A stretch of 64,000 nt of DNA, from contig JACPGH010000006.1 in NCBI GenBank assembly GCA_016182485.1, positions 90,461 through 154,460 of the forward strand, read 5' to 3'. Numbering within the stretch: position 1 is the stretch's first letter; each line of letters begins with the position of its first letter. The notes under the pieces are model-generated. The model had not been told where the DNA came from. It saw only the letters and a program-made list of their open reading frames with translations, and searched no databases. Below are positions 13,690-61,153 of the stretch, one piece after another. The translations under genes and the position numbers were made by a program. The DNA is from Candidatus Kaiserbacteria bacterium (GTDB lineage Bacteria; Patescibacteriota; Minisyncoccia; Phycocordibacterales; Phycocordibacteraceae).

Positions 13690-13758
13690 CCTGTGAAGGT
13701 CTGACCTTCACAGGTGCACATATATACAGTTAGCTTGTGAAGGTCTGACCTTCACAGG
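13690..13758. repeat. Pair of palindromic repeat elements (core TGTGAAGGTC-T-GACCTTCACA), locus A
   Basis: Copies lie at 13690-13714 (12-bp arms CCTGTGAAGGTC/GACCTTCACAGG) and 13734-13758. They sit between the convergent dedA-like and dsbA-like 3' ends. Confidence 0.8.
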
Positions 13759-13769
13759 GATCATCGGGC

Positions 13770-14486
13770 CTATTTCACGACGGTATCGAGCGCGGTCTTG
13801 AAACTCGCGTAGGGATACGCCCCGGCGATTAACTCGTCGCCGATTATGAGCGATGGCGTCGCGTTCACCCCGAGTCTCTGCGCCTCGGCGGTTACCTCTT
13901 GCGCGTGCCGCTCGTACGCGGCACGGTTAGCGTTCACATCGGCCGCGATTCTGGCAGCGTCGAGCCCGGGGATAGTCGCGTTCAACGAGTCGATGGACTG
14001 CGCATTGCCAAACCCGCCTCCCTCCTCGTCCTGCGCGGACATCATTGCTGTGCGCCATTCGAGATACTTTTCCGGATAGAGTTTCCAGACGGCCTGATTA
14101 TAAAGCGCGCCCGTGAGCGAATCCTGTCCCATGCGCGGAGAGAGGAATACGACATCCTTGAAAACGAGCTTCACCTTGCCGGTGTCCACATACTCTCTCA
14201 CTATGTCTGGAAATGCCGGCGGCGTGGGGATTTCCGGATGGCCGACCTCGAACGCTTTGCAGAACGGGCACTGGAAGTCGCTCCAGAATGCGATCGTAAC
14301 CGGGGCGTTTGGGTCCCCGATATACGGCTCTCCCTCCGTCCGCACGTCTTCAATATCCACGCTTGCAGTATCCGCAGTCCCAGGCCCGGGATTAGAGCTA
14401 TTCCACACGACTGCCCCCGCAACTAGCAGTCCGGCGATTATTACGGCGACTGGCAACAGGAACTTGTTTGAAGAAGTGGTGTCCAT
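13770..14486 (-). CDS. DsbA-like thiol:disulfide oxidoreductase (thioredoxin fold), membrane-anchored
   Basis: CPFC active site (FWSDFQCPFCKAF). The likely start is MDTTSSNKFLLPVAVIIAG (ATG at 14484-14486). The longer ORF extension to 14606 is probably spurious. Confidence 0.75.
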   Translation of the reverse strand: MDTTSSNKFLLPVAVIIAGLLVAGAVVWNSSNPGPGTADTASVDIEDVRTEGEPYIGDPNAPVTIAFWSDFQCPFCKAFEVGHPEIPTPPAFPDIVREYVDTGKVKLVFKDVVFLSPRMGQDSLTGALYNQAVWKLYPEKYLEWRTAMMSAQDEEGGGFGNAQSIDSLNATIPGLDAARIAADVNANRAAYERHAQEVTAEAQRLGVNATPSLIIGDELIAGAYPYASFKTALDTVVK

Positions 14487-14544
14487 ATGTTGGCGATGAT
14501 AGCATACGGTCGGATGTACAATAGCGGGATAAAAAGGAGGTCCC

Positions 14545-14619
14545 ATGAAAATCGCCACTCTCGCAATAATCGTAAGAGACGGACAGCTGCTCCTCGGACC
14601 ATTCAACCCCGCACTCTAA
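14545..14619 (+). pseudogene. 24-codon remnant resembling a NUDIX hydrolase N-terminus, or a leader peptide
   Basis: A perfect SD AAGGAGG lies 4 nt before the ATG. The peptide MKIATLAIIVRDGQLLLGPFNPAL resembles NUDIX N-termini. A stop is followed directly by the hairpin GGCCCCGCTTCGTCGGGGCC. Confidence 0.3.
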
Positions 14620-14722
14620 CCGGCCCCGCTTCGTCGGGGCCGTCTGATATAAATAGAAAAAGTACTACTATAAAATTATGCGCTAGTATGATATATCACA
14701 CTGTTGTCATCGTTTTAGTATT

Positions 14723-15046: not shown

Positions 15047-15146
15047 CCCTTATTTTAAATATAGTATAGTGTGGAAAGGTGGCTAGCTCTGTTCACATAT
15101 AGGACCGCCGCTCGACGGGAATCGGGCACAACGCAAGGAGGCCGCC

Positions 15147-15905
15147 ATGCGGCAGATCGCTATCGCTCTCTCTCTGCTGTGCCTCGTTTCCCTCTCGGCT
15201 CCGCCGGCGAACGCCGAGGAGACGCCTGTGCTCTCGTACTCCTTCGCCACCGAGTGGTGGGCGAAGTACCTGAACCAGGGCGGGTTCGTCATCCATGACG
15301 GTTCGGTGCTCTGGACCAGCCTGTTCGTCACGCACAACCGGAGCGGCTTCTACGCTGGTCTCTGGAACTCGACGCCAATCGACGGGACGGAGTTCAATTC
15401 CGACTTCGGCACCGAGAACGACATCTACCTCGGTTGGCGCGGGCGCACCGGCAACTTCGGCTACACCCTCGGCGTCGCGTACTTCGACCTGTACCGACTC
15501 GGCGGTGACCCTGCTGGGGATCTCATGCAGGCGTACGGCGAAGTGGCCTACCACTTCCCGTTCGGGAAGCACGAGCTCGTACCCTTCGCACGCCTCGAAT
15601 ACTCGATACCGCCGCCCGTGCGGCATACGATGCTCGATGAGAGCGTCCGCGGCCTCGTCGGCGTCCGGTACACGTACGTGTTGACCGAGCAAGTTGGCTT
15701 CTGGGCGAAGCTGTGGCTCATCGGCGATGATGGCCGGAACGCGCCCGAGGCGACCGGCATCGCGCAGCTGGACGGCGGCGTGAAGGTCGTGCTGACGCAG
15801 AACGTCAACATGACCTTCGGGGCAAGGCTGTCGCAGCCGATGACGAAGACGAGTTCGCGCAAGTTCGAGGCGGTGCCGAACGCCGCGCTCAACATCAACT
15901 GGTAG
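15147..15905 (+). CDS. Secreted beta-rich protein, possibly a beta-barrel (C-terminal aromatic residue)
   Basis: Signal peptide MRQIAIALSLLCLVSLSAPPANA. Alternating aromatic and hydrophobic residues, ending in ...NINW. Confidence 0.5.
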   Translation: MRQIAIALSLLCLVSLSAPPANAEETPVLSYSFATEWWAKYLNQGGFVIHDGSVLWTSLFVTHNRSGFYAGLWNSTPIDGTEFNSDFGTENDIYLGWRGRTGNFGYTLGVAYFDLYRLGGDPAGDLMQAYGEVAYHFPFGKHELVPFARLEYSIPPPVRHTMLDESVRGLVGVRYTYVLTEQVGFWAKLWLIGDDGRNAPEATGIAQLDGGVKVVLTQNVNMTFGARLSQPMTKTSSRKFEAVPNAALNINW

Positions 15906-15972
15906 TTCGAACCCCCGGCGCTTCGCGCGCCGAGGGTTCCTTCGTTATGTGATGGACATACGATGTCCATCA

Positions 15973-17034
15973 TTACTGATACTGGATATAAATCGGGATC
16001 GGGTTAAGAGCGAAAACTTCTTGGGGGGTCAGTAGGCCGTTCGCGGGCGGGCGACTATCGTTTTTATAAAACAGTTTTATGCCTGTGAATTGCACGGGTT
16101 CCGGCACGATGACGCGCGCGTAGGTATTTTTCTTCTTTTCCTTCGAACCGAAGCCGTCCATGTCCATTACTATCTGCACCTCCGGCAAGGGCCGTATCTT
16201 TTTGTAATTCGTCACCATGTCCGAGGTGAAACGGTGGATGACGAGCACCTTGGGTGGCAATTTGTTCTCCTGCACGAGTTTCGCGAGATACTCTGCTGCA
16301 AAATTGATATCCGCCGCGTCGAATGTGCCGATGACCGTGCCGGGCCGGTCGCCGAATTTCATCGAGAACTCCGGATCTATGCCCAAGTGCACCTGCGGCA
16401 TCTTCAAATATTTCTCAAGCATCGGCAATTCATACTGAAGCGTGCTCTTCCCTACCTGTACGTCGAGGAAAACGACCCCGTTCACTTTCTCGGCGAGCTC
16501 GAGCGCATGGTCTATTTGGTCGTCAGGCATCCGCAGCACATACTTGCCCTCCCTGCCGGCGCTCGCCTGCGCGACCACGGCGATGTAGTGGATCGCCGGG
16601 ACGACAGGCGTCGTCGGGTCGGCCGCCGCCCACATGGCGGAGGTGGAGGCGAGCATCGAGAGCATTTGGTCGGTCGGGTATTCGCCGAGCACGCCCATGC
16701 CTCTCGAATAGAAATTGCCGTAGTAGGCGACGATGCGCTTGAACGGCAGAATCGCGCCGGGGTTGGGATACGCAGTCTTCACGGGCCAAAGACGCGGGGT
16801 CGTAGAAGCGGCTTGCGGTGAGCTTGTCGAAACCGTTGTCGACGCAACATGCGCTAGAGCCAGAAGCCGCGCATCATACTCTGCCTTATCCAACTTGAGT
16901 ACTGGCGCTTCTTTTACGGACGCTTGGATCGCAGCGGCTTCATATATTCGAATTACCATCGGCGAAAAGCCGAACAGATAAATCAGCATTCCTCCGGCGA
17001 CGCATAGAGCCGCTACCAGGATTTTATGCAGCAT
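15973..17034 (-). CDS. Membrane-anchored hypothetical protein with a large extracytoplasmic domain
   Basis: 353 aa with an N-terminal TM helix. Codon usage is consistent with neighbouring genes. No motif could be assigned with confidence. Confidence 0.5.
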   Translation of the reverse strand: MLHKILVAALCVAGGMLIYLFGFSPMVIRIYEAAAIQASVKEAPVLKLDKAEYDARLLALAHVASTTVSTSSPQAASTTPRLWPVKTAYPNPGAILPFKRIVAYYGNFYSRGMGVLGEYPTDQMLSMLASTSAMWAAADPTTPVVPAIHYIAVVAQASAGREGKYVLRMPDDQIDHALELAEKVNGVVFLDVQVGKSTLQYELPMLEKYLKMPQVHLGIDPEFSMKFGDRPGTVIGTFDAADINFAAEYLAKLVQENKLPPKVLVIHRFTSDMVTNYKKIRPLPEVQIVMDMDGFGSKEKKKNTYARVIVPEPVQFTGIKLFYKNDSRPPANGLLTPQEVFALNPIPIYIQYQ

Positions 17035-17088
17035 GCCGGTATAGTAACAGGATTTAGGCTCTAGGCTCTAGAGTGCCAACGGCTAGCT

Positions 17089-17574: not shown

Positions 17575-17702
17575 GGCGCAAATTCATACAACGTGCGGCA
17601 ATCATATCCGCTTTACGGTGAACATAGAGTGAAAATCCGCTAAGTGCTAAAAACGGGCCCTTCGTCGAAGACTCCTCAGGACTGCGTCGCTTCGCTCCTT
17701 GC

Positions 17703-19726: not shown

Positions 19727-19765
19727 ATCGCGGCCGGGTCCTCTACCCGGCCGCTTGAGTCGCCC
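19727..19765 (-). terminator. Intrinsic terminator (GCGGCCGGGU...ACCCGGCCGC stem followed by a U6 tract on the minus strand)
   Basis: The + strand reads TAAAAAACATCGCGGCCGGGTCCTCTACCCGGCCGC, which on the minus strand gives a stem followed by GAUGUUUUUUA. It lies 27 nt downstream of the 19792..20487 gene. Confidence 0.65.
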
Positions 19766-20487: not shown

Positions 20488-20593
20488 GCGGCTCTCCTTT
20501 CTTTCTTGGGTGCTGTCCGAAGCTCATAGTACCATTTCGCTAGCTATAGCAGTGGCGGCCGGTCCCGAGATTCGGGACCGGCCGCGCGAACGG

Positions 20594-20857: not shown

Positions 20858-20973
20858 CGGGCCCCCTTTCGAACGATCGTCTGTCCAGAGTCTATCTGTG
20901 AACAAAAGTATTGGCAATTTCGCATATAAACATCGCGGCCGGGTGGCATGCCACCCGGCCGCTGCTCGTCGCC

Positions 20974-21654: not shown

Positions 21655-22710
21655 CTATAATTTAACTCGTAAAGCGTCAATCGCCGCAATCAGTTCATCG
21701 GCGCACACGCTTCGCATCAAAGTTGCTCGCATGTCAGCGGCGCCGTCGAAACCGGAGACGAACGCTTTGATGTGCTTCTTTAGGACGTCGAAATGCTTCG
21801 GCGGTGAAAGACTTTCAAAGCCGTGCGCAAGCTCGCCAAGCGCCCGTAATTTCTCCTCGAGCCTATGTTCGGACATCGCATGTCCAACTTCACGGGAGGA
21901 CATCCGATGTCCTGCAATGCCTTCAAATAGCCACGGATTACCGAACAGCGCGCGGCCGAGCATGACGCCGTCACAGCCGGACTCCTCCGCCTTCATTCGC
22001 GCGTCCTCCAGTCCGCGCACGTCGCCGTTGCCGATGAGGAGCACGCGCGGATTCACCCGGTTGCGGATCGAGACGGCTTTTTTCATCAGTTCCCAGTCAG
22101 CCGGCGCTTTTGACATCTGTTTGCGCGTGCGCAGATGAAGCGTGATCGCCGCAGGTTCCGCTTCGAGCAGGACCGGCAGCCATTCATCGAGCGACTCCTT
22201 GCTATACCCCACGCGCGTTTTCACCGAAACCGGCATCCGTACCAATTTCGTCCTATAGGCTGGATTTGGTACGGAAGCTCGCCAGGCTTCTTGCGCCGCG
22301 CGAATAAGCGCGGCGGCATGTTTCGGATTTTTTATGAGCGCGGCTCCGGCTTCTTGTTTCTCGATAGATTTGTCCGGGCAGCCCATGTTGAGATCCACGC
22401 CGTCGAATCCGAGCTCCGCTACAAGTTTTGTCGCATAGGCGATCATTTCCGGCTTGCTCGAAAATATCTGCGCGACGATCGGATGCTCTTCGGCAGAAAA
22501 CTGCAGGTCGCGTATGAGAGGATTCTCAGCATCCGGGATTCTCTGCACTTCGCCCGTGTGATACAAGCCGTCCGCCGAAACGAATTCGGTCCATATGACG
22601 TCCGGCTTGCCGTAACGAACGAGCAGCCCCCGAAAGGCCGCGTCCGTCACATCCGCCATCGGCGCGGAAGCGAAAAACGGCCTCGGCAGCTTGTTCCAAA
22701 ACGATTCCAT
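21655..22710 (-). CDS. tRNA-dihydrouridine synthase (Dus family)
   Basis: The N-terminus (FFASAPMADVTDAAFRGL) and PVSVKTRVGY match the Dus FMN TIM-barrel. The C-terminal segment resembles a helical Dus domain. Confidence 0.85.
   Translation of the reverse strand: MESFWNKLPRPFFASAPMADVTDAAFRGLLVRYGKPDVIWTEFVSADGLYHTGEVQRIPDAENPLIRDLQFSAEEHPIVAQIFSSKPEMIAYATKLVAELGFDGVDLNMGCPDKSIEKQEAGAALIKNPKHAAALIRAAQEAWRASVPNPAYRTKLVRMPVSVKTRVGYSKESLDEWLPVLLEAEPAAITLHLRTRKQMSKAPADWELMKKAVSIRNRVNPRVLLIGNGDVRGLEDARMKAEESGCDGVMLGRALFGNPWLFEGIAGHRMSSREVGHAMSEHRLEEKLRALGELAHGFESLSPPKHFDVLKKHIKAFVSGFDGAADMRATLMRSVCADELIAAIDALRVKL
22237..22274. repeat. 38-nt imperfect palindrome inside the dus CDS (encodes VPNPAYRTKLVR); near-identical to an intergenic copy at 32864-32905
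   Basis: The sequence is CCGTACCAATTTCGTCCTATAGGCTGGATTTGGTACGG. The copy at 32864-32905 matches it at about 34 of 38 positions. Confidence 0.6.
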
Positions 22711-45157: not shown

Positions 45158-45982
45158 TCATTCTTTCATTTCTTCTATCAAACCGAGTCGATAAATATCG
45201 AACGAGTGGTCGCCCTCGAACATGTCGGAGGGGTTCGGCAGCCAGATACGCCGGCGGGAGATCTCGGCGGTAGCATCCTCGATAAGCCGGCGGAAGACTA
45301 CGAAGTCGCGCTCGAGCGTCTGATAATCGAGCACGTAGCGTTTGAGCTGAGCGGACCCGTCGGCGTTCCTCGTTTTCTTGCATTCATAGACGATGAACCG
45401 CCGCACCGGCTTCTCAAAGAGCTTCCCGACCGTGTAGTAATTGAATAGCGCCTGAAGGACGAAAAGCGTTTTGGCCGAGCCGCCTTTGCTGAACGCAGTG
45501 ACGAACTTGTGATCCACTATATCCACCGCGCCCGATTCTGCTCGCGACGCCACCACAAGATCGGAGACGGCCTTCAAGGGCAGTGCCAATCCCTCCACTT
45601 CTACTACTCCCTTCACTTCCACCCCGAGAATTTTATGCCGCGGCGGCCGCGCAAGATAAAACGAGACCGCCTGCGCATATTCCCGCTCCATCGCCGCTCG
45701 CTTCTCTTTCTTCGCCTTGCGCGACTTCAACTTGCCAAAATCGAGCTCGAAATCCGCAATGTTCCGAAGGTACGCGAGCCCTTTAGCGGTGGCCGCCTCC
45801 TTGGAATCTCCACGGTAGAAATTCTCGAGAGCCAAGTGCCCGGCGCGGCCGACTACCGACGCTGGCGATGTCGGCGTATCATAAACTTCTTCGACATACC
45901 GCTTGTACCAAGCTAAGGGATTACGCAAGAACGCGACGAGGGACGAATGGCTCCAATGCTTGATCGGCGGCTTCCTCCCCAT
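45158..45982 (-). CDS. RecB-family PD-(D/E)XK nuclease (Cas4-like core without the Fe-S cysteines)
   Basis: N-terminal WSHSSLVAFLRNPLAWYKRY, then GRAGHLALE, IVDHK (D/ExK) and QALFNYY (QxxxY). There is no C-terminal Cys cluster. Confidence 0.6.
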   Translation of the reverse strand: MGRKPPIKHWSHSSLVAFLRNPLAWYKRYVEEVYDTPTSPASVVGRAGHLALENFYRGDSKEAATAKGLAYLRNIADFELDFGKLKSRKAKKEKRAAMEREYAQAVSFYLARPPRHKILGVEVKGVVEVEGLALPLKAVSDLVVASRAESGAVDIVDHKFVTAFSKGGSAKTLFVLQALFNYYTVGKLFEKPVRRFIVYECKKTRNADGSAQLKRYVLDYQTLERDFVVFRRLIEDATAEISRRRIWLPNPSDMFEGDHSFDIYRLGLIEEMKE

Positions 45983-46040
45983 TACCGCTATATTACGCTA
46001 TCCCGCAAGGGAATTCGCTAAATCTTCATTATGATTTCAG

Positions 46041-46110
46041 AGTGTGAAGGTCTGACCTTCACAGAATGAGTTGGGGATAACATAGCTTGTGAAGGTCAGA
46101 CCTTCACAGC
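46041..46110. repeat. Pair of palindromic repeat elements, locus B (cores 46043-46063 and 46088-46108)
   Basis: TGTGAAGGTCTGACCTTCACA, and TGTGAAGGTCAGACCTTCACA with a central T-to-A change. They lie in the divergent promoter region between the RecB-like nuclease and a receiver gene. Confidence 0.8.
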
Positions 46111-46216
46111 GGCTACTCCTCCGCCTCGTAGAAGGCGAGCGGGAGGGTTGCTGGACAAAATTGAATGAAGTGATATATTGGGCACAGATTCGCACATCAA
46201 CCTCAAGGAGAGAAGG

Positions 46217-46582
46217 GTGTCCAAAAAAATTCTGTTGGCCGAAGACGAGCCGGACGTGCGCGACGTAGTGGTCGAACTCCTCGAAGCTGAGGGGTACGAG
46301 GTCGTCGCCGTGGGAAACGGCTTCGAACTTCTCGATCGGCTCGCCGTCGAACGTTTCGATCTGGTGGTGACAGACAACGACATGCCGCGCATGAGCGGCC
46401 TCGCGGCGCTCGAACAGATCCGAGAGGACGAAGTCCTTCGAGACCTGCCGGTCATCGTGTACACGACTCCTCGAGGAGAACTGGTGTGGGAGCATGTCGC
46501 GATGCTCAACGGCGTGCTTGTCGAGAAGGGCTCTCACGGGAATCTTCTCGAGATCGTCGCGACGCTCCTGTTGTCGAAATGA
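46217..46582 (+). CDS. Single-domain response regulator (CheY-like receiver)
   Basis: GTG start with the SD AAGGAGAG. Motifs KILLAEDEPDVRD...DLVVTDNDMPRMSG...IVYT. No output domain. Confidence 0.7.
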   Translation: MSKKILLAEDEPDVRDVVVELLEAEGYEVVAVGNGFELLDRLAVERFDLVVTDNDMPRMSGLAALEQIREDEVLRDLPVIVYTTPRGELVWEHVAMLNGVLVEKGSHGNLLEIVATLLLSK

Positions 46583-46649
46583 TGGAAGTTAGCAGGCCCG
46601 GGCGGATTACCGCCCGGGCCTGCATTGCTTTACGCAATTGTTGTTTGCA

Positions 46650-47876
46650 TCAGTATGATTTCAAATGCCGCGCTTTGTCGTGCGTGCGGATCTTCTCAAG
46701 CGCCTTAGCTTCGATCTGGCGGATGCGCTCGCGGGTCACCGAGAATTCCCTGCCCACCTCCTCGAGCGTGTGATAGACGCCGTCCATGAGCCCGTGGCGC
46801 ATCTCGAGGATCTTGCGCTCCTTCGGCGAGAGGTCGTTAAGGATCGCCCGCACTTGTTCGGCGAGAATGCGCTCCGAGGATTCCTGCACCGGAGAAGGGA
46901 TCTTATCATCCGGGATGAAATCTCCCAAAGTTGACTTCTCATCATCATCCGAGCCCACCGGATTCTCGAGTGAGAGCGTATCCTGATTTATTTTTTCTAT
47001 CTGATAGATCTTCTCCGGCTCTACTCCCATTTCGACGGCGATCTCTTCGGCGTGCGGATCCCGGCCCAAAGCCTGCGCGAGGCGGCGGGATATCTGCTTA
47101 TATTTGGCGATCGTCTCGACCATGTGCACAGGGATGCGGATCGTGCGCGACTGGTCAGCAAGCGCGCGGGTGATCGCCTGTCGGATCCACCAGGTCGCGT
47201 AGGTAGAAAACTTGTAGCCCTTGCGCCAATCGAATTTGTCCACTGCGCGGAACAGGCCCAAGTTCCCTTCCTGGATGAGGTCGAGCAAGGTGAGATCGGG
47301 CGACCGGCCGACGTATTTCTTGGCGATGGAGACAACTAGGCGCAGGTTCGAGCGCGCAAGTATATTGCGCGCCTCTGCATCGCTTTTCTCGATGCGCTTG
47401 GCTAGTTCGCGCTCTTCGGCGGCGGTAAGGAGTGGGTACTGGCCGATCTCCCGCAAGTAGATCTGTATTGAGTCGTAACTGGCCGAATGGTGATCTTTGA
47501 TGTTGCGCGTGGCGAGATACTCATCCGTGGCATCTTCAAGCATGCCGCCCTCGAGCACGTCGACTCCGGCAGTCGCGAACCGCTCATACAGGGACTCGAG
47601 AAAATTCACGTCATCCTCGACATGCGGGAAGGACTTCAGGATCTCGTTGTATGTGACATATCCTCGCTCCTTTCCCTTCTCGATGAGCTGTTCCGCGGAG
47701 AGAGATTTGGCGAGCGAAGCCTTATCGCCATGAGCGCGCGCCGCTACTCGTACGATCTGCTTTTTTGTGCGCAGAGAACGCCGGCGAACGGATTTCGCCT
47801 TTATTTTTGCGCGACGCTTCCCCGCCCCTTTTGGGCGTCGCGATTTCACCGATTTTTTGTTCCTCGGCGTAGCCAT
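46650..47876 (-). CDS. rpoD: RNA polymerase sigma factor RpoD (sigma-70)
   Basis: Region 2 ([39 protein letters not shown]) and region 4 HTH. The start is taken at MATPRNKK (ATG 47874-47876). Confidence 0.9.
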
Positions 47877-49933: not shown

Positions 49934-49975
49934 CGTAAACGGGCGCGACCTCTCGGTCGCGCCCGTTCTCTATCT

Positions 49976-50050
49976 GCATGGATGTGAAGGTCTGACCTTC
50001 ACATCCATGCGCGACTATCGTTGTACCTGTGAAGGTCTGACCTTCACAGG
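49976..50050. repeat. Pair of palindromic repeat elements, locus C (35-nt perfect palindrome 49976-50010; 25-nt copy 50026-50050 abutting the rpoC stop)
   Basis: The first copy is GCATGGATGTGAAGGTC-T-GACCTTCACATCCATGC and the second is CCTGTGAAGGTCTGACCTTCACAGG. The rpoC stop codon is at 50051-50053. Confidence 0.85.
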
Positions 50051-53000
50051 TTACTTTGCGCGGGTTGGCGGGGTACCCGCTCCGCCGGAGCCCACGCGAG
50101 ACGAGAAACTGGTCGAGCGGGTCGGCGCGGAAGGAGCCGGACGCGAAGCCTGGAGCTTCGCGATGTGCGCGAATTTCTTGCTGCCGGAAAAGCCGGTGCC
50201 AGCCGGAATCAGGCGCCCCAGAATGACATTCTCTTTCAATCCGCGCAGGCGATCCACGCTTCCGCGCAATGCCGCGTTGATTAGTATCTTCGTCGTCTGC
50301 TCGAAGGAAGCCGCGGAGAGGAAGGAGCGCCGCGAGAGCGCGCTCTCTTTAATGCCGAGCACTATCTCCTTCGCATGCGGCGGCATTCGATTAGCCGCTT
50401 CCGCATCCTTGACCGCCTTTGCGAATTCCCAATCTTCGACGATATCTCCGACCGAATAGTCGGTGTCGCCGGCGTCTGTTATCTTCACGCGCGAGAACAT
50501 TTGCTTCACTACAACCTCGAAGTGCTTGCGCGCCACCGAGGCGCCCTGCATTTCATAGATCTTCGACGCCTCGGCGATTATATACTCTTGAACCGCCGCG
50601 CGCCCCGCGTATTCGAAGAGTTCATCGAGATCCACGGAGCCGTCCGTGAGGATCTGGCCCTTGGACACCAGATCGCCTTCTTTAACGAGCGCGACGCGCG
50701 GGTACGGAGCCAGATACTCATAGACCGAGCCGTCCTTCTTGCCCTGCCCCGCTTCGGGAGCTACGACGATTATCTTCTCGCGGCCCTGCTCCTTGACCTC
50801 GATCACGATGCCATCGGTCTTAGAGACGACTGCCGGATTTTTCGGCGAGCGCTTCTCGAAGACTTCTTCCACGCGCGGCAGACCGCTCGTGATATCGCCT
50901 CCGATCGAAGCCACGCCGCCGGCATGGAACGTACGCATCGTGAGCTGCGTGCCCGGCTCGCCGATCGCCTGCGCCGCTACCGTACCGACCGCTTCTCCCA
51001 GATCAACGAGCTCCTGGCTCGTGAGATCCATGCCGTAGCAGGTCTGGCAGATGCCGTAGCGCGTCTCGCAGGACATCGGGGAACGCGCGACGATTGAAGC
51101 GACTCTCGAGGCCGCCAGTGTTTCAGCGTCCTGCGCAGAGAGATAGTGTCCTTTTTTCCAGCCCGAGGCGGGGCCGCCTGCGGCGGAAAAGTCTCCTTCG
51201 ACAGATTCTGCCAAAACGCGGCCACGGAGCGCTTCAGCGAAGTTTATCTGGATGCCCGAGGCGCTCACGCGATTAATTTTCACTCCGCGCTTCGTGCCGC
51301 AATCCTTCTCGGTCACTATGGAGTCCTGCGCCACGTCAAAGAGGCGGCGCGTGAGGTAGCCCGCCTTCGCAGTGCCGAGCGCCGTGTCGGCCAATCCTTT
51401 GCGGGCGCCGTGCGTCGCGATGAAATACTCAATTGGATTGAATCCTTCGATGAACGAGGAGACAATGGGGACTTCGATGGTTTCGCCGGCCGTGTTCTGG
51501 ATGAGGCCTTTCATGCCGGCCATCTGCGTGACCTGCCCCATCGAGCCGCGGGCGCCGGAGAGCACCATGTCGGCGATGGAGCCCATCGGATTCAAGTTTT
51601 CCGCGACCTTTTTCTCGATGTCTTGACGAGAGGCCTGCCACACTTCGATAGCCATGCGGCGCTTCTCGTCTTCGGCGAGAAGACCGTTCTGATAATCCTC
51701 TTCTATCTTCGCGACCTTCGCCGAGGCGTCCTCGATTATTTGCTGCTTATCGGCCGGGACGGACACTTCGTCGAGCGACCAGGTGACGCCGGACTTCGTC
51801 GCGTAGTCGAAGCCGAAGCGCTTCACTTTGTTCACGATAGCCGGGATGGCGTCCAGGCCGTAGCGCTCAATGCAGTCGTTCACGATGCGCGCGAGCACTT
51901 TGCGCGTTATGGTCTCGTTAACGAACGGATAATCTCCGGGCAAGACGGTATTGAAGAGGAGGCGGCCGACTGTCGTCTCGAACGGACGGTTCTCGAACTG
52001 CTCATACTTTTTCTTGCCGGAGACCGGCAACACCTTGATCTTCGCTCGGATATCTATCGCGCCATACTCTGAGACTAGAATGGCGGCGTTTGGCGACGCG
52101 AAATATTCGCCCTCTCCCTTCAGTTTATCTACCGCCTTGGTAAGCCAGTAGACTCCGAGAACGATGTCGAGCGGCTTGCCAGTAAGCACTATCATATCGC
52201 CGGAACCGGGCTTCAATATATTCTTGTTGGCGCTCATGATGTTGGCCGCTTCCCACTGCGCTTCCTCCGAGAGCGGGACGTGCACGGCCATTTGATCGCC
52301 GTCGAAGTCCGCGTTGAAGGCGTTGCAGACGAGCGGATGAAGCTGGATGGCATCGCCTTCGATAAGGCGGGGCCGGAATGCCTGGATGCCCTGGCGATGG
52401 AGGGTTGGCGCGCGGTTCAGGAGCACGTATTTGTCCTTAATTGCTTCTTCGAGGATCTCCCACACTTCCGGCACGCCATCTTCGATAAGACGGCCTGCGC
52501 CGCGGATATTGAAGGCCAGCTCGCGGTCAAGAAGTCCGGCTATGACGAACGGGCGGAATAGTTCAAGCGCCATGTGCTTGGGCAGACCGCACTCATCAAG
52601 CTCGAGATCCGGACCGACGACTATCACCGAACGGCCGGAATAGTCGACGCGCTTGCCGAGGAGGTTCTGGCGGAAGTATCCCTGCTTCCCTTTCAGATAA
52701 TCGGCGAGCGATTTGAGCGGACGGCGCTGCGCCATCGTGAGCGCGCCGGAGGCGCCGCTCTTTCTGATCGAATTGTCGAGGAGCGCGTCCACCGCCTCTT
52801 GCAGGATGCGCTTCTCGTTGCGAAGGATGACTTCCGGCGCATGAATATCGATAAGTTTCTTCAATCGGTTATTGCGGTTGATGACGCGGCGGTAGAGGTC
52901 GTTTACGTCGGAAGTCGCATGGCGGCCTCCCTCAAGCGCCACCATCGGGCGGAGCGCCGGCGGAATGACCGGGATGCGCGTAAGGAACAGCCATTCGGGA

Positions 53001-53812
53001 CGGATGCCGGCCGAAATAAGTCCCGCGACGAGCGAGAGGCGCTTCGCGAGTTTCTCGCGCTCGGCCGCGCTCGCTTTCTCATAGCGAGCGGAGAGCGTCT
53101 TCTCGAGCGCCTTCAGATCGAGCGCTCGAAAGATGTCGTAGATGGATTCTGCGCCGATGCGAGCTTCGAAGAGCCCCCCGTATTTTACTGAGAAGCGATG
53201 ATATTCGAGCTCGTCGAGTACCTTGCCGACGACTAGACTCTCTATCTCGGCCTTCGCTAGCGTCATTTTCTCTTTGAGCGCGTCCCGCTCCTTATCCGAG
53301 GCGAGCGACTTGTACTTCGACTTGAATTCGCTCTCGAGTTCCGCGATGAGCCTTTTCTTCTCTTCCTCGACGACCTTGGAAACGATGTAGCCGGCAAAAT
53401 ATACGACCTTCTCGATATCCGCAGCGGACGCGCCCAGAAGCAGCGCCATCCTAGAAGGAACGCTTCGGAGGAACCAGATATGCGCGACCGGCGTACAGAG
53501 TTCGATATGGCCCATGCGCTCGCGCCGCACTATGGAACGGGTGATCTCGACGCCGCACTTATCGCAGATGATTCCCTTGTAGCGAATGCCCTTGTACTTG
53601 CCGCAGTAGCACTCGTAGTCCTTCTCGGGCCCGAAGATCTTTTCATCGAAGAGGCCGTGCTTTTCAGACCGCTGCGTGCGGTAGTTAATGGTCTCGGGTT
53701 TGGTAATTTCTCCGTGGCTCCAGGCCAGAATGCGCTCGGGCGAGGCGAGAGTGAGGCGCAGGCCGTTCCAGATATCGTGCGGAGAGGTAGCTTTGCGTGG
53801 AATGAATGCCAT
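50051..53812 (-). CDS. rpoC: DNA-directed RNA polymerase subunit beta'
   Basis: 1253 aa. Zn-binding CYCGKYKGIRYKGIICDKCGVE, the NADFDGD catalytic loop, and trigger-loop and bridge-helix motifs. Confidence 0.95.
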   Translation of the reverse strand: MAFIPRKATSPHDIWNGLRLTLASPERILAWSHGEITKPETINYRTQRSEKHGLFDEKIFGPEKDYECYCGKYKGIRYKGIICDKCGVEITRSIVRRERMGHIELCTPVAHIWFLRSVPSRMALLLGASAADIEKVVYFAGYIVSKVVEEEKKRLIAELESEFKSKYKSLASDKERDALKEKMTLAKAEIESLVVGKVLDELEYHRFSVKYGGLFEARIGAESIYDIFRALDLKALEKTLSARYEKASAAEREKLAKRLSLVAGLISAGIRPEWLFLTRIPVIPPALRPMVALEGGRHATSDVNDLYRRVINRNNRLKKLIDIHAPEVILRNEKRILQEAVDALLDNSIRKSGASGALTMAQRRPLKSLADYLKGKQGYFRQNLLGKRVDYSGRSVIVVGPDLELDECGLPKHMALELFRPFVIAGLLDRELAFNIRGAGRLIEDGVPEVWEILEEAIKDKYVLLNRAPTLHRQGIQAFRPRLIEGDAIQLHPLVCNAFNADFDGDQMAVHVPLSEEAQWEAANIMSANKNILKPGSGDMIVLTGKPLDIVLGVYWLTKAVDKLKGEGEYFASPNAAILVSEYGAIDIRAKIKVLPVSGKKKYEQFENRPFETTVGRLLFNTVLPGDYPFVNETITRKVLARIVNDCIERYGLDAIPAIVNKVKRFGFDYATKSGVTWSLDEVSVPADKQQIIEDASAKVAKIEEDYQNGLLAEDEKRRMAIEVWQASRQDIEKKVAENLNPMGSIADMVLSGARGSMGQVTQMAGMKGLIQNTAGETIEVPIVSSFIEGFNPIEYFIATHGARKGLADTALGTAKAGYLTRRLFDVAQDSIVTEKDCGTKRGVKINRVSASGIQINFAEALRGRVLAESVEGDFSAAGGPASGWKKGHYLSAQDAETLAASRVASIVARSPMSCETRYGICQTCYGMDLTSQELVDLGEAVGTVAAQAIGEPGTQLTMRTFHAGGVASIGGDITSGLPRVEEVFEKRSPKNPAVVSKTDGIVIEVKEQGREKIIVVAPEAGQGKKDGSVYEYLAPYPRVALVKEGDLVSKGQILTDGSVDLDELFEYAGRAAVQEYIIAEASKIYEMQGASVARKHFEVVVKQMFSRVKITDAGDTDYSVGDIVEDWEFAKAVKDAEAANRMPPHAKEIVLGIKESALSRRSFLSAASFEQTTKILINAALRGSVDRLRGLKENVILGRLIPAGTGFSGSKKFAHIAKLQASRPAPSAPTRSTSFSSRVGSGGAGTPPTRAK

Positions 53813-58326: not shown

Positions 58327-58622
58327 AGCTCGTCCACGATCTGGTCGACGGACTTGTTCTCGGGGTCCCGCTTGCCGCCGATCGGCTCGTTTATCTTGAG
58401 ATTCACGCGCGCGTTCTCTTTCATCCCCACAACTCTAAGAAGGATCCGGAGAGCCTCGGCGGTTTTACCGCTCTTGCCGATAATCTTGCCCATATCTTCA
58501 GGATGCACCGTGAGCGTGAGCAAAACTCCCATTTGATCTATGGTGCGCGTAGTCTCGACCGATTCGGGATGGTCGGCGAGCGCTTTGACTACATATTCGA
58601 GAAATGCCTGATCCGGTTCCAT
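58323..58622 (-). CDS. KH-domain RNA-binding protein (UPF0109/YlqC-like)
   Basis: KH GxxG motif (IIGKSGKTAEALRILLRVVG). It sits in the usual position between rpsP and trmD. It overlaps trmD by 4 nt. Confidence 0.8.
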   Translation of the reverse strand: MEPDQAFLEYVVKALADHPESVETTRTIDQMGVLLTLTVHPEDMGKIIGKSGKTAEALRILLRVVGMKENARVNLKINEPIGGKRDPENKSVDQIVDEL

Positions 58623-58645
58623 TTATGTTGAGCAGGGTCGATTCA

Positions 58646-59011
58646 TTATTCAGCTGCGGCCTCTTCAGTTTGCTCTGTAGCGGGAGTTTCTGCTGGCGCC
58701 TTTTCAGTTCTAGGAGTTTCAGCTATTACTTTATTCTCTAAGACCTTCGAAGGTATGACATTAACCTTCTTCCCAGAGAGTACTCCCTTATCGATAAGGA
58801 GATTATGAACAGAGTCGGTAGCCTGTGCGCCCTTCGCTAGCCATTCCTTCACACGCTCTCCGTTTATTGTTGCCACTTTACTCTTCGGGTTATACGTGCC
58901 GAGAAGCTCTACGACGTTCCCTGCCTTGGCGGCTCGCTCTTTCTCGAGAACGACTATACGAAACGCCGGGTCGTTCCTGCGGCCGGTTCTCTGGAATCGG
59001 ATCATTAGCAT
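58646..59011 (-). CDS. rpsP: 30S ribosomal protein S16
   Basis: MIRFQRTGRRNDPAFRIVV aligns with S16 (IRLxRxGxKKRPFYxIVV). The ORF runs to 59020; the start is ambiguous between M4 (59011) and M6 (59005). Confidence 0.85.
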   Translation of the reverse strand: MLMIRFQRTGRRNDPAFRIVVLEKERAAKAGNVVELLGTYNPKSKVATINGERVKEWLAKGAQATDSVHNLLIDKGVLSGKKVNVIPSKVLENKVIAETPRTEKAPAETPATEQTEEAAAE

Positions 59012-59043
59012 GACCCGCAAACTATAGCAGAACTCGAAATATA

Positions 59044-61080
59044 TTGCTAGAGTACAACAAAATGCCGACAGGCAAGACGTACGAGGGCCCTATCACGATA
59101 ACCCGCAGCGGGATAGGATTTTTCCCGTTGTCGGGCGGGACTAGCCGGGATAAGAGTACGGATCTTATTATCCCGGCGGAGTGGACTGGGCATGCTCTCT
59201 CTGGCGATATCGTGAAGATCGTCCCAGCAGGTACCTACCGCGATCCAGCCGGACGAATGCCTCCGCGCGCGGCCGGAAAGGTCGCAGAGATCGTTTCGCG
59301 CGCCCGCGAAACGTTTGTGGGCACGCTCATTGAGCAGGAAGGAGCGGTATTGCTTTCCCCGGATTACAAAAAAATGCACCTGCCGATCGAGGTGCGTCCC
59401 TCGCAAAAGCTCGGGACGATCGGCGATGCGCCGATCGGATACAAAGTGCTCGTGCGGATGAGGGGCTGGGACGCAAATGCGCCCTACCCTTGGGGCGTGG
59501 TCGAAGAAGTAATCGGCAAGGCAGGCGTACACGAGACCGAAATGCGGGCCCTCGCGCTCGGGCAAGGGTTTTCGTCTGACTTCCCTCCCGGCGTTCTCGC
59601 GGATGTCAAATATCTTGAAGAGCACGGGCGCGCGATACTGGAAAAAGAAGCGCAAAATTCGAAACGCCGTGATTTCAGGGATATTCCCACTTGCACTATC
59701 GACCCGTTCGATGCGAAGGATTTCGACGACGCGCTCTCCGTGCGCCCGCTCGCGGGCGGGAATATCGAGGTGGGCATCCATATCGCGGATGTCTCCTTTT
59801 TCGTTACTCCCGAAAGCGCGCTCGACAAGGAAGCTCGCGAGCGGGCGACCTCAGTCTACCTGGTCGACCGTACCATTCCGATGCTTCCGGAAGTGCTGTC
59901 GAATGATCTATGTTCGCTAAAGCCGAACGAAGACCGCCTCGCCGTCTCTGCGGTGTTCACCCTCGACGCCGAGGCTCACATCGTAGAAAGCTGGTTCGGC
60001 GAGACGGTTATACATTCGAACAAGCGCTTCACGTACGAGGAAGCGCAGGAAGTTCTCGATCGCGGGGACGGTACGATGCATAGAGAGCTGTCGCTCCTGC
60101 TCGCTCTCTCGAAGAAAATCCGCGCGAAGCGCCAGGCCAAAGGCGCGATCGAATTCGATACCGCCGAGGTGAAAGTGGAGCTCGATGCCGACGGCCGGCC
60201 GATAGCGATCCGTCTCAAGGAACGGAAAGCGACGAACCTCTTGATCGAGGATTTCATGCTGTTGGCTAACGAAGCTGTAGCGAAGCATCTGGCCGCGCTG
60301 ACCGAAAACGGCGGCCCGCACTTCTATTCGCTCTATCGCATCCACGACGCGCCGGACGCCGATCGCATCGAAAATCTTTCCCACCTTCTGCGAATCATGG
60401 GCTACCAGCTGAAAACAGCCGGGGGGAAAGTTTCGGGAGCCGAGCTGAACAGACTGCTCGAGTCGGTGAAGGGCAAGCCCGAAGAATACCTCGTCAAGAC
60501 GGCAACGCTGCGCTCAATGAGCAAAGCAGTATACGCGACGCAGAATATCGGTCACTTCGGGCTCGCCTTCGATTTCTACACGCACTTCACCTCTCCGATC
60601 CGCCGCTATCCCGATCTGGTCATACACCGCCTGCTCAAAGCGCACGCGGGCCTTCGCCTCGCCGGAGCGGGCTTCGGCCACGCGCAGGCGGGCGGCGCGC
60701 CGATCTCGGAAGAAGAAATGCGGGACTTTGACGCGCTCGCCCTGCACGCTTCCGAACGCGAAGTCGCGGCGGCGGAGGCGGAGCGCGATTCTATAAAGAT
60801 GAAGCAGGTAGAGTTTCTCGCCGGGCGCATCGGCGAGGAATTTGACGCAGTTATTTCCGGCGTCACCGACCGGGGTTTGTATGTGGAAGAGAAAGAAACG
60901 CACGCCGACGGCATGATACGCATCCAAAACGTCGGAGACGATTATTTCGAATACGACGAGAAGCACTACCGACTCGTCGGCCGCCGCACGAAGAAGGCAT
61001 TTCAGCTCGGAGACCCCATCCGCGTTAAATTGATCGCCGCGCGCGTCCCTGAAAAAGAACTGGATTTCGTCCCAGTGTGA
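59044..61080 (+). CDS. rnr: Ribonuclease R (RNB family 3'-5' exoribonuclease)
   Basis: Cold-shock/OB N-terminus, an RNB catalytic domain (DPFDAKDFDDALSV...HIADVSFFV) and a C-terminal S1 domain. Confidence 0.9.
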   Translation: MLEYNKMPTGKTYEGPITITRSGIGFFPLSGGTSRDKSTDLIIPAEWTGHALSGDIVKIVPAGTYRDPAGRMPPRAAGKVAEIVSRARETFVGTLIEQEGAVLLSPDYKKMHLPIEVRPSQKLGTIGDAPIGYKVLVRMRGWDANAPYPWGVVEEVIGKAGVHETEMRALALGQGFSSDFPPGVLADVKYLEEHGRAILEKEAQNSKRRDFRDIPTCTIDPFDAKDFDDALSVRPLAGGNIEVGIHIADVSFFVTPESALDKEARERATSVYLVDRTIPMLPEVLSNDLCSLKPNEDRLAVSAVFTLDAEAHIVESWFGETVIHSNKRFTYEEAQEVLDRGDGTMHRELSLLLALSKKIRAKRQAKGAIEFDTAEVKVELDADGRPIAIRLKERKATNLLIEDFMLLANEAVAKHLAALTENGGPHFYSLYRIHDAPDADRIENLSHLLRIMGYQLKTAGGKVSGAELNRLLESVKGKPEEYLVKTATLRSMSKAVYATQNIGHFGLAFDFYTHFTSPIRRYPDLVIHRLLKAHAGLRLAGAGFGHAQAGGAPISEEEMRDFDALALHASEREVAAAEAERDSIKMKQVEFLAGRIGEEFDAVISGVTDRGLYVEEKETHADGMIRIQNVGDDYFEYDEKHYRLVGRRTKKAFQLGDPIRVKLIAARVPEKELDFVPV

Positions 61081-61153
61081 AGGTCTGACCTTCACACGCA
61101 TTTTATCCTTATAAATGCTCAAAAACAGCCTGTGAAGGTCTGACCTTCACAGG
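61075..61153. repeat. Pair of palindromic repeat elements, locus D (61075-61097 overlapping the rnr stop; 61129-61153)
   Basis: GTGTGAAGGTCTGACCTTCACAC includes the rnr TGA (61078-61080). CCTGTGAAGGTCTGACCTTCACAGG follows 31 nt later. They sit between the convergent rnr and smc-like 3' ends. Confidence 0.85.

Follow-up and report, generated by a model that had tools for sequence, protein, structure and literature searches.

The closest described relatives of the repeats reported here are the REP/RAYT systems of Proteobacteria, namely E. coli REP/BIME with TnpA-REP (PDB 4ER8) and Pseudomonas REPIN-RAYT (Bertels & Rainey 2011, PMC3116915), which likewise consist of short palindromes located mostly just 3′ of genes and often present as doublets. 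Classical RAYT substrates carry an unpaired GTAG tag, which is needed by E. coli TnpA-REP. Another class of palindromic repeats, the Rickettsia palindromic elements (RPE), has a length of about 100–150 bp. No published description of REP/RAYT elements in Patescibacteria was found. In a stretch of 64,000 nucleotides from a Candidatus Kaiserbacteria bacterium (the window), eight palindromes occur which are very probably REP elements, arranged as four REPIN/BIME-like doublets and belonging to a Patescibacteria-specific REP/RAYT system. They represent a known kind of element that differs from classical REPs: the palindrome is perfect, neither a GTAG nor a CGTC tag is present, and the RAYT clade is divergent.

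The Palindrome and Its Four Loci

The window contains eight matches to TGTGAAGGTCNGACCTTCACA, each with 0 mismatches, starting at 13692, 13736, 46043, 46088, 49983, 50028, 61076, and 61131, vs 0 in 100 shuffles. The eight palindromic cores in four pairs that a sequence-only reading of this DNA had described are thus all present. They have the form TGTGAAGGTC-[T/A]-GACCTTCACA, with a central T in seven copies and, as that reading had also seen, a central A in one (46088). The repeat unit is a 21-nt perfect palindrome with a 10-bp stem around a single central base, the consensus including flanks is YY-TGTGAAGGTC-W-GACCTTCACA-RR, and the hairpin is identical whether it is folded from either DNA strand or from an RNA copy. 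The predicted folds of the loci have energies of −43 to −81 kcal/mol (z-scores −5.8 to −13). The spacers between partner cores measure 23, 24, 24, and 34 nt and are only weakly similar in sequence to one another, so that either the doublet or the single hairpin may be the mobile unit; centre to centre, the partners are 44 nt apart at locus 1, 45 nt at loci 2 and 3, and 55 nt at locus 4. A search of the window with up to 3 mismatches gave no further core copy, and the 10-nt half-site was not found alone in the window, except for a 1-mismatch match at 15779 that is at chance level. The features are as follows.

13690–13714, unstranded: candidate REP copy 1a, core 13692–13712, central T, 2-bp CC/GG extension
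13736–13756, unstranded: candidate REP copy 1b, core, central T, TAGCT before core
22534–22554, minus strand: probable decayed in-frame REP relic in the Dus gene (21655–22710, minus strand), GGCGAAGTGCAGAGAATCCCG
46043–46063, unstranded: candidate REP copy 2a, core, central T
46088–46108, unstranded: candidate REP copy 2b, core, central A (opposite orientation), TAGCT before core
49938–49967, unstranded: GC-rich 13-bp hairpin, AACGGGCGCGACC-TCTC-GGTCGCGCCCGTT
49976–50010, unstranded: candidate REP copy 3a, core 49983–50003 with 7-bp complementary extension, a 35-nt perfect palindrome
50025–50051, unstranded: candidate REP copy 3b, core 50028–50048 with 3-bp extension
61075–61097, unstranded: candidate REP copy 4a, core 61076–61096 with 1-bp extension
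61127–61155, unstranded: candidate REP copy 4b, core 61131–61151 with 4-bp extension

Three of the loci had been described as convergent, which holds for loci 1 and 4. At locus 1, copy 1a begins 3 nt past the stop codon of a VTT/DedA gene (13080–13688, plus strand), and copy 1b ends 13 nt short of the stop codon of a thioredoxin/DsbA-like gene (13770–14606, minus strand). Locus 4 lies between RNase R (59044–61080, plus strand), whose TGA stop codon forms core positions 3–5 of copy 4a, and smc (61172–63382, minus strand). Terminator-like sequences come after both copies: GCATTTTATC after copy 4a on the plus strand and, for smc, GTTTTTGAGC after copy 4b on the minus strand. Locus 3 is located directly 3′ of rpoC (50051–53812, minus strand), and the extension of copy 3b runs as far as the first base of that gene's stop codon. 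The convergent label is unverified at this locus, since no family matches the small ORF there and the first real genes beyond it, dnaG and rpoD, share the strand of rpoC. The hairpin at 49938–49967 is likely the rpoC terminator, which would place the doublet between the stop codon and the terminator. Locus 2 is divergent, as originally described, being a 195-nt region between a PD-(D/E)XK gene (45158–45982, minus strand) and a receiver-domain gene (46178–46582, plus strand). The sequence-only reading had drawn attention to this RecB-family nuclease as the one adjoining a pair; it has no link to the repeats, and no homologue of it occurs at any other repeat locus.

Complementary Flanks beyond the Core

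The complementary flanks noticed earlier are real: CC..GG at 13690–13714, the 35-nt perfect palindrome at 49976–50010, ACC..GGT at 50025–50051, G..C at 61075–61097, and AGCC..GGCT at 61127–61155. Perfect extension is absent at both locus 2 copies and at copy 13736. Over 45 copies, comprising those of the window and of 32 other loci, perfect extension averages 2.6 bp vs 0.35 at random positions, and an extension of at least 4 bp is found in 14 of the 45 vs 0.5% in the null; the YY/RR preference at two flanking positions accounts for part of this excess. Four species share an orthologous site at which the flank extensions vary yet remain complementary. It had been argued that such flanks imply selection, but they are not proof alone, as template-switch correction at a strong palindrome would produce the same pattern.

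Transposase Genes Bracketed by the Repeat

No RAYT was found in the window by tblastn, in agreement with the sequence-only reading. The search for a Y1 HUH transposase elsewhere was positive. In the four other Patescibacteria genomes richest in core copies (L010, L018, L022, and L024), two exact cores lie 10–40 bp from the ends of an ORF of 235–242 aa. These ORFs match Pfam Y1_Tnp (PF01797) at 23–34 bits (cut-off 23) and carry invariant N-H-x-H (HUH) and Y-x3-K-N motifs. An AlphaFold model (pLDDT 91.5) is matched best in the PDB by 4er8_A, a complex of the E. coli REP-associated tyrosine transposase with a REP hairpin, and next by ISDra2 and IS608 TnpA; by sequence, 4ER8 was found neither with a single-sequence nor with a profile search. 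Against NCBIfam REP_Tyr_transpos the proteins score at most 29 bits vs an equivalog cut-off of 80, and those that go with identical 21-mers share only about 43% identity. At the five RAYT loci that were read (L118, L122, L123, L113, and L114), no tnpB was seen.

A homologous transposase, MBI2410188.1 (P0305; 236 aa), has the same organism name as the RpoC of the window (MBI2410130.1). It is probably from the same assembly because its accession is 58 numbers away; this assignment is based on accession adjacency and on agreement in GC content rather than on a shared contig. One REP doublet lies on either side of its gene (L118, 2675–3385): upstream, exact cores stand at 2586 and 2631, and downstream at 3395 and 3440, the cores of each pair being 45 nt apart as in window doublets. 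More distant RAYTs of the clade have variant palindromes of their own on their flanks, among them TGGAAGGTCTGACCTTCCA (L113), ATAAAGGTCWGACCTTTAT (L114), TGTGGAAGTTNAACTTCCACA (L122), and TGGGAAGGTCWGACCTTCCCA (L123). Beside RAYTs at 25–46% identity, the perfect palindromes are quite different. Transposase and repeat sequence co-vary across the clade.

Distribution, Mobility, and In-Frame Copies

In a survey set of 185,579 species, with one genome per species, the exact 21-mer was found at 37 places in 32 other loci, all labelled Patescibacteria, with 1–5 exact copies per genome; none was found in viral contigs. In three relatives, no repeat follows rpoC in the syntenic rpoB-rpoC-dnaG-rpoD locus, one of them having only a 3-nt gap there, and relatives keep a comparable hairpin after rpoC without REPs. 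Locus 3 is therefore an insertion, and the insertion polymorphism that had been proposed as a check exists.

About 10 of the 37 copies lie inside ORFs and are translated. The in-frame 21-mer adds 7 codons and occurs within such genes of other genomes as groEL, topA, dus, and ksgA. Relative to L003, KsgA of L032 contains exactly 7 additional residues (CEGQTFT), and the insertions in GroEL of L001 and in TopA of L029 and L030 are absent from homologues. In the window, 22534–22554 is a probable decayed relic: GGCGAAGTGCAGAGAATCCCG agrees with the core at 12 of 21 positions and lies at exactly the site where an intact core, which encodes CEGQTFT, is present in the Dus orthologues from L007 and L017. 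The core is nucleotide-perfect at orthologous sites whose flanks are 67–83% identical. Transposition must be rare, given the few copies per genome and the orthologous sites across species, and the near absence of decayed copies seems to fit purifying selection or homogenisation better than a purely selfish repeat.

Proposed Mechanism and Alternative Explanations

The REP-type identity suggested by the sequence-only reading is supported by the bracketed transposase genes, the further copies, and the insertion polymorphism, whereas its MITE-like label is rejected because terminal inverted repeats plus target duplication are absent. By analogy with E. coli TnpA-REP and IS608 TnpA, a single-strand-specific, RAYT-type Y1 HUH transposase, encoded outside the window and probably in the same genome (MBI2410188.1), is predicted to recognise the hairpin on single-stranded DNA and to cut and rejoin beside it, a biochemical activity that would spread and maintain the copies. 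A host-level role beyond mobility may also exist. Most window copies directly follow stop codons and so would be transcribed into very stable 3′-UTR hairpins, which could block 3′-exonucleases; at locus 4, the hairpins and the following T-runs may terminate both convergent transcripts.

Such a role can hold as an addition to REP/RAYT. That the hairpins are mainly host RNA elements under selection (3′-UTR stabilisers or bidirectional terminators), with an incidental or historical transposase link, is improbable. A stop codon lies within 0–13 nt of six of the eight window copies, very stable RNA hairpins are predicted, and the core stays perfect at orthologous sites despite diverged flanks; nevertheless, locus 2 is a divergent promoter region, in-frame copies are translated, and a terminator would neither need one exact 21-mer across species nor explain its bracketing of transposase genes. 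The terminator option raised earlier stands at most for locus 4, where a T-run follows each hairpin in the direction of the incoming gene and a terminator scan detects both; at loci 1–3 no T-run follows, and at locus 3 a separate GC-rich terminator hairpin is already present, with which alone relatives manage.

The operator pairs also proposed earlier would be bound as double-stranded DNA by a dimeric protein, either a regulator or a nucleoid or segregation protein of the ParB, MatP, or Noc type. This is very unlikely, even though the perfect 21-bp dyad, the pairs at a fixed distance of about 45 bp (some four turns of the helix), and the conservation across species would suit it. The outer TGTGA/TCACA of the core, which resembles CRP half-sites, was counted in its favour, but the spacing is N11 and not the N6 of CRP. 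Three of the four loci are at gene 3′ ends rather than promoters, copies lie in frame inside genes of other genomes, complementarity into variable flanks matters for a hairpin and not for a duplex binding site, and the sole gene repeatedly adjoining the repeat encodes a single-strand HUH transposase. Least probable of all is that the 10-mer serves naturally competent Patescibacteria as a DNA uptake sequence, comparable to Neisseria DUS and Pasteurellaceae USS. DUS form inverted repeats downstream of genes, the repeat here tends to have the same position and arrangement, and one exact oligomer is common to many species of one lineage at a GC content of 37–58%. Uptake sequences are mostly single, whereas the half-site never stands alone in the window; the density of 1–5 exact palindromes per genome elsewhere is low, differences in the arms among related genomes follow the transposase, and the flanking of transposase genes would be left unexplained.

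Comparison with Known Systems

As in the REP/RAYT systems of Proteobacteria, copies of the repeat stand on both sides of a Y1 HUH transposase gene, the repeat sequence co-varies with the transposase lineage, copies persist at orthologous sites, and the modelled fold is closest to TnpA-REP. In contrast to them, the host belongs to the Patescibacteria, whose genomes measure about 1 Mb; the perfect palindrome has a centre of 1 nt and lacks the GTAG tag, and no one-sided tag was found beside the repeats; copy numbers are low; identical 21-mers occur in many species with transposases only about 43% identical; and the 236-aa protein is extended by helices at its C-terminus and scores below the NCBIfam equivalog cut-off.

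The GTAG- and CGTC-tagged REP superfamilies (Di Nocera et al. 2013, PMC3733652) resemble the present repeats in their size class (20–40 bp, with stems of 5–13 bp), their frequent dimers, their preference for sites between convergent or co-directional genes, and their intragenic in-frame copies. In contrast, the present repeats have a symmetric YY/RR preference only, with no unpaired GTAG/CGTC tag or 3-nt tail, and a loop of a single base vs 2–20 there. With IS200/IS605 (IS608, ISDra2), the Pfam Y1_Tnp superfamily and HUH/Tyr chemistry are in common and, by analogy, DNA hairpins would be recognised on single strands; but here there is no sign of the gene moving with its ends as a unit, the same perfect palindrome stands on both sides instead of distinct left and right ends, and the hairpins are mostly without a gene. 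As with RPE (cited in PMC3733652), palindromes lie in frame in essential genes and are tolerated as extra peptide loops; RPE are much longer and have no dedicated transposase, whereas the unit here is 21 nt, equal to 7 codons.

The Palindromic Repeat in the Window

The core of the repeat family is a 21-nt perfect palindrome (YYTGTGAAGGTCWGACCTTCACARR) whose centre is the sole asymmetric base of the unit; this base is T in seven of the eight window copies and A in the remaining one. A search with the pattern TGTGAAGGTCNGACCTTCACA returned eight exact matches in the window versus none in 100 shuffles, in agreement with the eight copies in four pairs described by the sequence-only reading.

Core doublets in the window (core starts from the pattern search; spacing centre to centre)
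Locus 1, 13690..13756, cores at 13692 and 13736, 44 nt: takes up the 81 nt that separate the convergent genes for VTT/DedA and a DsbA-like protein
Locus 2, 46043..46108, cores at 46043 and 46088, 45 nt: flanked by divergently oriented genes for a PD-(D/E)XK nuclease and a receiver-domain protein
Locus 3, 49976..50051, cores at 49983 and 50028, 45 nt: begins 2 nt past the stop codon of rpoC, with a separate GC-rich hairpin after it (49938-49967)
Locus 4, 61075..61155, cores at 61076 and 61131, 55 nt: between convergent RNase R and SMC genes

The convergent setting claimed earlier holds at loci 1 and 4, as does the divergent one at locus 2; at locus 3 the next real genes, dnaG and rpoD, share the strand of rpoC, and no family match was obtained for the small ORF there. 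All eight copies are extragenic or overlap a stop codon, and six lie within 13 nt of a stop. Short (20-40 bp), repeated, and mostly extragenic near gene 3′ ends, the window repeats correspond to the generic definition of REP elements. The stop codon of RNase R (TGA) is formed by core positions 3-5 of copy 4a, the first copy at locus 4 (window 61076-61080), and the insertion therefore defines the end of this reading frame or replaced it.

No additional copy was found in the window at up to three mismatches, and the 10-nt half-site was never seen there outside the palindromes. A DNA uptake sequence, which would need abundant single oligomers in both orientations, was rejected because the half-site occurs in the window inside palindromes only. 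CRISPR had been dismissed already and is indeed ruled out, since the copies form pairs only, at four dispersed loci, with no array of three or more repeats. A scan of the window with Rfam at gathering thresholds gave two tRNAs only and no match at the repeats. The PD-(D/E)XK nuclease, noted earlier as the only nuclease adjacent to a pair, was considered as partner enzyme and rejected, as no homologue occurs at any other repeat locus. In the relative L115, its orthologue directly follows the rpoD-position gene on the same strand after a 15-nt gap, without repeats (8433-9720). In the window (45158-46650), by contrast, the two genes are separated by the REP doublet and by a receiver-domain gene on the opposite strand with its terminator hairpin (46592-46623).

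Long perfect hairpins are unusually many in the window (32 with a stem of at least 9 bp versus 0-1 in shuffles), and the core family is the only one with eight identical members. Several other palindromes were observed.

Other palindromes in the window
2450-2492: 43-nt perfect palindrome GGACATCGTAAGTCCATCATC-T-GATGATGGACTTACGATGTCC, in frame in the queuine tRNA-ribosyltransferase gene (2252-3532, minus strand), encoding LDIVSPSSDDGLTMS
15950-15972: 23-nt palindrome related to the preceding one, at the start of ORF 15548-15973
11500-11542: 43-nt perfect palindrome (21-bp stem) in a 946-aa TraG/VirD4/HerA-like ORF (10205-13045, minus strand), encoding APAPLEIGFLTGQAP
19730-19754, 20555-20585, 20935-20962: three palindromes built on GCGGCCGG...CCGGCCGC within 1.3 kb

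The first of these lies about where TGT enzymes usually have their CxCxxC zinc motif, and together with the palindrome at 15950-15972 it may represent a second palindromic repeat family. Two of the three palindromes on GCGGCCGG...CCGGCCGC have similar preceding sequence (aaaaaacatc, tataaacatc); the three may be related terminators or form one more small repeat family.

The Repeat in Other Genomes

The sequence-only reading had allowed for a core absent elsewhere, with four independent terminators in its place. The exact palindrome was found at 37 places in 32 other loci when one genome per species was searched (185,579 species), in addition to four copies at the transposase locus described below; roughly one match would be expected by chance, on a rough estimate. 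All 32 loci come from metagenome-assembled genomes labelled Patescibacteria, with the labels Paceibacterota, Kaiserbacteria, Minisyncoccia, Nomurabacteria, Parcubacteria, and some Saccharibacteria, and their GC content ranges from 37 to 58%. Near-copies are rare, five with one to four mismatches versus 37 exact ones. The core was absent from the viral contigs searched.

The Transposase Partner

No RAYT (REP-associated tyrosine transposase) is encoded within the window, and the search suggested earlier for a HUH Y1 transposase elsewhere succeeded. In four loci of other genomes (L010, L018, L022, and L024), two cores 750-800 bp apart bracket an ORF of 235-242 aa and lie 10-40 bp from its ends; these four genomes hold the most copies of the core. 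The same bracketing by the exact core is found in L118-L121. The ORFs match the Pfam family Y1_Tnp (PF01797, IS200-like transposase) at 23.0-33.8 bits with a cut-off of 23, one protein being borderline, and the NCBIfam model REP_Tyr_transpos (NF047646) at 17.6-29.1 bits, well under its equivalog cut-off of 80. Some proteins of the clade are already auto-annotated as "RayT".

In an alignment of 119 homologues, N86, H89, Y147, K151, and N152 are invariant and H87 nearly so, giving the N-H-x-H HUH motif and Y-x3-K-N; H87, H89, and Y147 are numbered on the RAYT of the L010/P0001 type, and their equivalents in MBI2410188.1, of the L022 type, are H84, H86, and Y144. The AlphaFold model of one homologue (pLDDT 91.5) has as its best Foldseek match in the PDB 4er8_A (E 7.4e-5, probability 1.00, TM-score (target) 0.58), which is the E. 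coli REP-associated tyrosine transposase with bound REP hairpin, followed by ISDra2 and IS608 TnpA (IS200/IS605). The clade is thus predicted to have a TnpA-REP-like fold. Searches of the PDB with a single sequence and with a 17-sequence profile found no transposase, and the fold search alone did; these misses mark the RAYT clade as divergent, as does its NF047646 score at the level of sequence.

As for the window's own genome, the protein MBI2410130.1 of a Candidatus Kaiserbacteria bacterium, encoded on a 178.8-kb contig, matches the window RpoC at 100% identity, the next relatives being at 86%. A profile search with the second subfamily gave 684 homologues. One of them, P0305, is MBI2410188.1, "transposase [Candidatus Kaiserbacteria bacterium]", which stands 58 accession numbers after the window RpoC under the same organism name. 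Proteins of one GenBank submission are numbered consecutively, and the gene is therefore probably in the same assembly; accession adjacency, organism name, and GC (0.57-0.59 at the transposase locus versus 0.57 in the window) make this a strong inference. The gene is present in four independent short-read assemblies (L118-L121) and is bracketed in all of them by two exact-core doublets. The transposase contig is present in the runs SRR12113385, SRR12113424, SRR12113430, and SRR12113383.

Doublets at the transposase locus L118 (central base in brackets)
2586(A) and 2631(T): upstream of the transposase gene
3395(T) and 3440(A): downstream of the transposase gene

Both doublets of these four further exact cores are spaced 45 nt centre to centre, close to three of the four window doublets (44, 45, and 45 nt). 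REP/RAYT systems are defined by just this picture, in which a transposase gene has its own repeats on both sides. Many transposase contigs are merely about 1 kb long, and the repeats therefore probably fragment metagenome assemblies at this locus.

Covariation of Transposase and Repeat

Variant cores, themselves perfect palindromes, flank RAYT genes in L113, L114, L122 (a complete 993-kb chromosome), and L123, and in many of the loci L033-L112. In closer relatives, the inner AAGGTC-N-GACCTT is retained and the outer arm varies (TGGAAGGTC.. in L113, ATAAAGGTC.. in L114, TGGGAAGGTC.. in L123, and TGTGGAAGTT.. in L122). When metagenomes were scanned with the transposase profile, the relatives found were all distant (25-46% identity) and none had the exact core; their repeats have unrelated arms, a like design, and often a doublet arrangement, such as ACAAAGGTT-T-AACCTTTGT, CTCGAGAAC-A-GTTCTCGAG, and CCAAGGAC-T-GTCCTTGG. 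The L010-type and L022-type subfamilies are about 43% identical, yet the identical 21-mer is common to both. Within 2 kb of the RAYT gene, L123 holds three repeat variants, namely, two copies of TGGACAAGTCTGACTTGTCCA, the TGGGAAGGTCWGACCTTCCCA that flanks the gene, and a single exact TGTGAAGGTCAGACCTTCACA (2068-2088, 2325-2345, 2956-2978, 3737-3763, and 3805-3825), so that several repeat lineages can coexist in one genome.

Insertion, Intragenic Copies, and Persistence

The insertion polymorphism sought among relatives was found after rpoC. Three relatives with RpoC 85-86% identical and the order rpoB-rpoC-dnaG-rpoD have no repeat within 3 kb of rpoC; one has a 3-nt gap to dnaG, and in the other two rpoC is followed by just one ordinary terminator hairpin. 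The doublet at locus 3 was therefore inserted after the stop codon of rpoC, ahead of the terminator of this gene.

About 10 of the 37 copies elsewhere lie in frame inside genes, where the 21 nt add seven codons (CEG[LQ]TFT or VKV[RG]PSQ). Dus and TopA were named through the Pfam matches of their window orthologues, and the other host genes from sequence motifs.

In-frame copies of the core in other genomes
groEL: L001 4298
dus: L007 783 and L017 2191
ung: L009 3820
leuS: L020 89
topA, two copies: L029 109/140 and L030 6011/6042
ksgA: L032 2484
folA (DHFR): L026 6191

Orthologues without the core show clean gaps of 7 residues in KsgA (L003), 6 in GroEL (L021, L028), and 11-13 in TopA of the window. 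The label of MITE, offered earlier beside that of REP, does not fit, as the unit is one hairpin and no direct duplication was seen at the KsgA, GroEL, and Dus insertion sites in comparison with diverged orthologues.

Cores are also found at orthologous positions across species (L012/L013/L023/L027, L002/L004, L007/L017, L021/L028, and L029/L030), where the flanks are 67-83% identical and the core differs at the centre only. In dus of L007 versus L017, none of the 21 core positions has changed versus 9 of 36 neighbouring coding positions; the topA copies are likewise base-perfect between species while adjacent codons change. At the site of the intact dus core, the window gene carries GGCGAAGTGCAGAGAATCCCG (22534-22554, minus strand; GEVQRIP), which agrees with the core at 12 of 21 positions and is probably the decayed relic of an ancient core insertion. 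The orthologous sets were found by exact match, a procedure that under-samples decayed orthologues and allows no rate to be derived.

Many RAYT genes of the clade hold an in-frame copy of their own cognate palindrome, matching the flanking repeats of the locus. In 10 of 40 distant RAYT loci it precedes the HUH motif, at about 140-200 nt into the gene (around residues 50-62), and in the L010/L113 subfamily it occupies residues 188-194, where alone the AlphaFold model drops below pLDDT 50.

Internal palindromes in RAYT genes
Distant loci: L055 1196-1212, L048 6159-6175, L067 1838-1856, L049 465-487, L044 3464-3486, L057 6183-6231, L036 915-933, L046 631-661, L040 2955-2977, L051 2318-2352
L010/L113 subfamily: L010 6284-6304, L113 6558-6582

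These internal palindromes could reflect self-insertion or autoregulation. At L055, the downstream repeat also supplies the stop codon.

Flanks and Doublet Structure

The sequence-only reading had described complementary flanks outside the core and had deduced from them selection for a hairpin. The complementarity is present in the window copies, and over 45 copies the perfect extension averages 2.6 bp versus 0.35 bp at random positions, with 14 copies extended by 4-13 bp. Part of this signal is accounted for by a symmetric base preference, with pyrimidines favoured immediately 5′ of the core and purines immediately 3′, so that the real consensus is a 25-nt unit, YY-core-RR. Among 50 copies oriented by the central base, no one-sided GTAG/CGTC tag was found and no flank position exceeded 0.5 bit; only the symmetric YY/RR preference at positions ±1 and ±2 appeared.

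Selection itself is possible, not proven, as three explanations fit. At the orthologous site of L012/L013/L023/L027 the extensions all differ (gcagaacc, acaatatt, tattt, and agcatccggactc), each pairing with its partner. Complementary flanks may reflect selection for a longer hairpin; they may also arise where a core was inserted into the loop of an older hairpin whose stem covaried. Strong palindromes are also known to mutate by template-switch ("quasipalindrome") correction, which fits as well and needs no selection.

Five of the six doublets in the window and at the transposase locus are spaced 44-45 nt. Their centres are inverted (T/A or A/T) in the two transposase-flanking doublets and at locus 2, and T/T at loci 1, 3, and 4. 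The doublet spacers are weakly alike (2-3 of 15 pairs above chance). The doublets may be REPINs, pairs of inverted REPs that move jointly.

Possible Roles in the Host

The four loci are predicted to fold, as RNA or ssDNA, with energies of -43 to -81 kcal/mol and z-scores between -5.8 and -13. Two hairpins can form, or one long unit-unit hairpin, because each unit is self-complementary. The bidirectional terminators proposed earlier would apply at most to locus 4, where a T-run lies behind each hairpin as read from the gene leading into it; such T-runs are absent at loci 1-3. Enterobacterial REPs serve as 3′-UTR stabilisers or terminators, and by analogy a similar action of the core hairpins is plausible. 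Such a role at 3′ ends would not be the reason why the family exists, because of the copies in a promoter region and inside genes.

A further reading is that the 21-nt hairpin is a domesticated element under nucleotide-level selection across Patescibacteria and not merely a tolerated selfish repeat. It draws on the base-perfect orthologous copies, including coding ones, on the near absence of decayed copies, and on the in-frame copies in RAYT genes, and is considered unlikely. These observations would fit a partnership of RAYT and hairpin that benefits the host, for example by processing ssDNA at the replication fork or in the course of DNA uptake, or one in which the transposase regulates itself via its own hairpin; if this reading is true, no smaller tag-less substrate would be known for a HUH transposase.

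Comparison with Known REP/RAYT Systems

The REP-type reading is supported by the RAYT gene bracketed by the core, by the copies elsewhere, and by the syntenic relatives without repeats. Judged by their arrangement, repeats and transposase would work like a REP/RAYT (REPIN-RAYT) system, whose defining genomic feature is present and in which single-strand binding and cleavage of the hairpin by the RAYT are putative. To our knowledge, nearly all characterised systems of this kind are from Proteobacteria and a few other phyla, and a literature search found no publication on the motif, on RAYT in Patescibacteria, or on REP in Parcubacteria or the candidate phyla radiation; the host phylum is new for them. 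Patescibacteria have genomes of roughly 1 Mb with very little non-coding DNA, and the persistence of a transposase-plus-hairpin system is informative for this reason. The exact 21-mer across species, together with the 7-codon insertions in groEL, topA, and leuS, offers a natural test of selfish versus domesticated elements, and the tag-less perfect palindrome a compact substrate for the biochemistry of HUH enzymes.

Intragenic REPs and long vertical persistence have precedents (PMC3733652; bioRxiv 10.1101/2021.07.10.451892). In contrast to the GTAG/CGTC-tagged REP superfamilies (PMC3733652), the Patescibacteria repeat has no tag at the foot of the stem, and its RAYT clade falls below the threshold of the NCBIfam REP_Tyr_transpos equivalog. 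Unlike described REP families, the repeat is a perfect palindrome with a one-base centre, and one exact sequence is common to many species.
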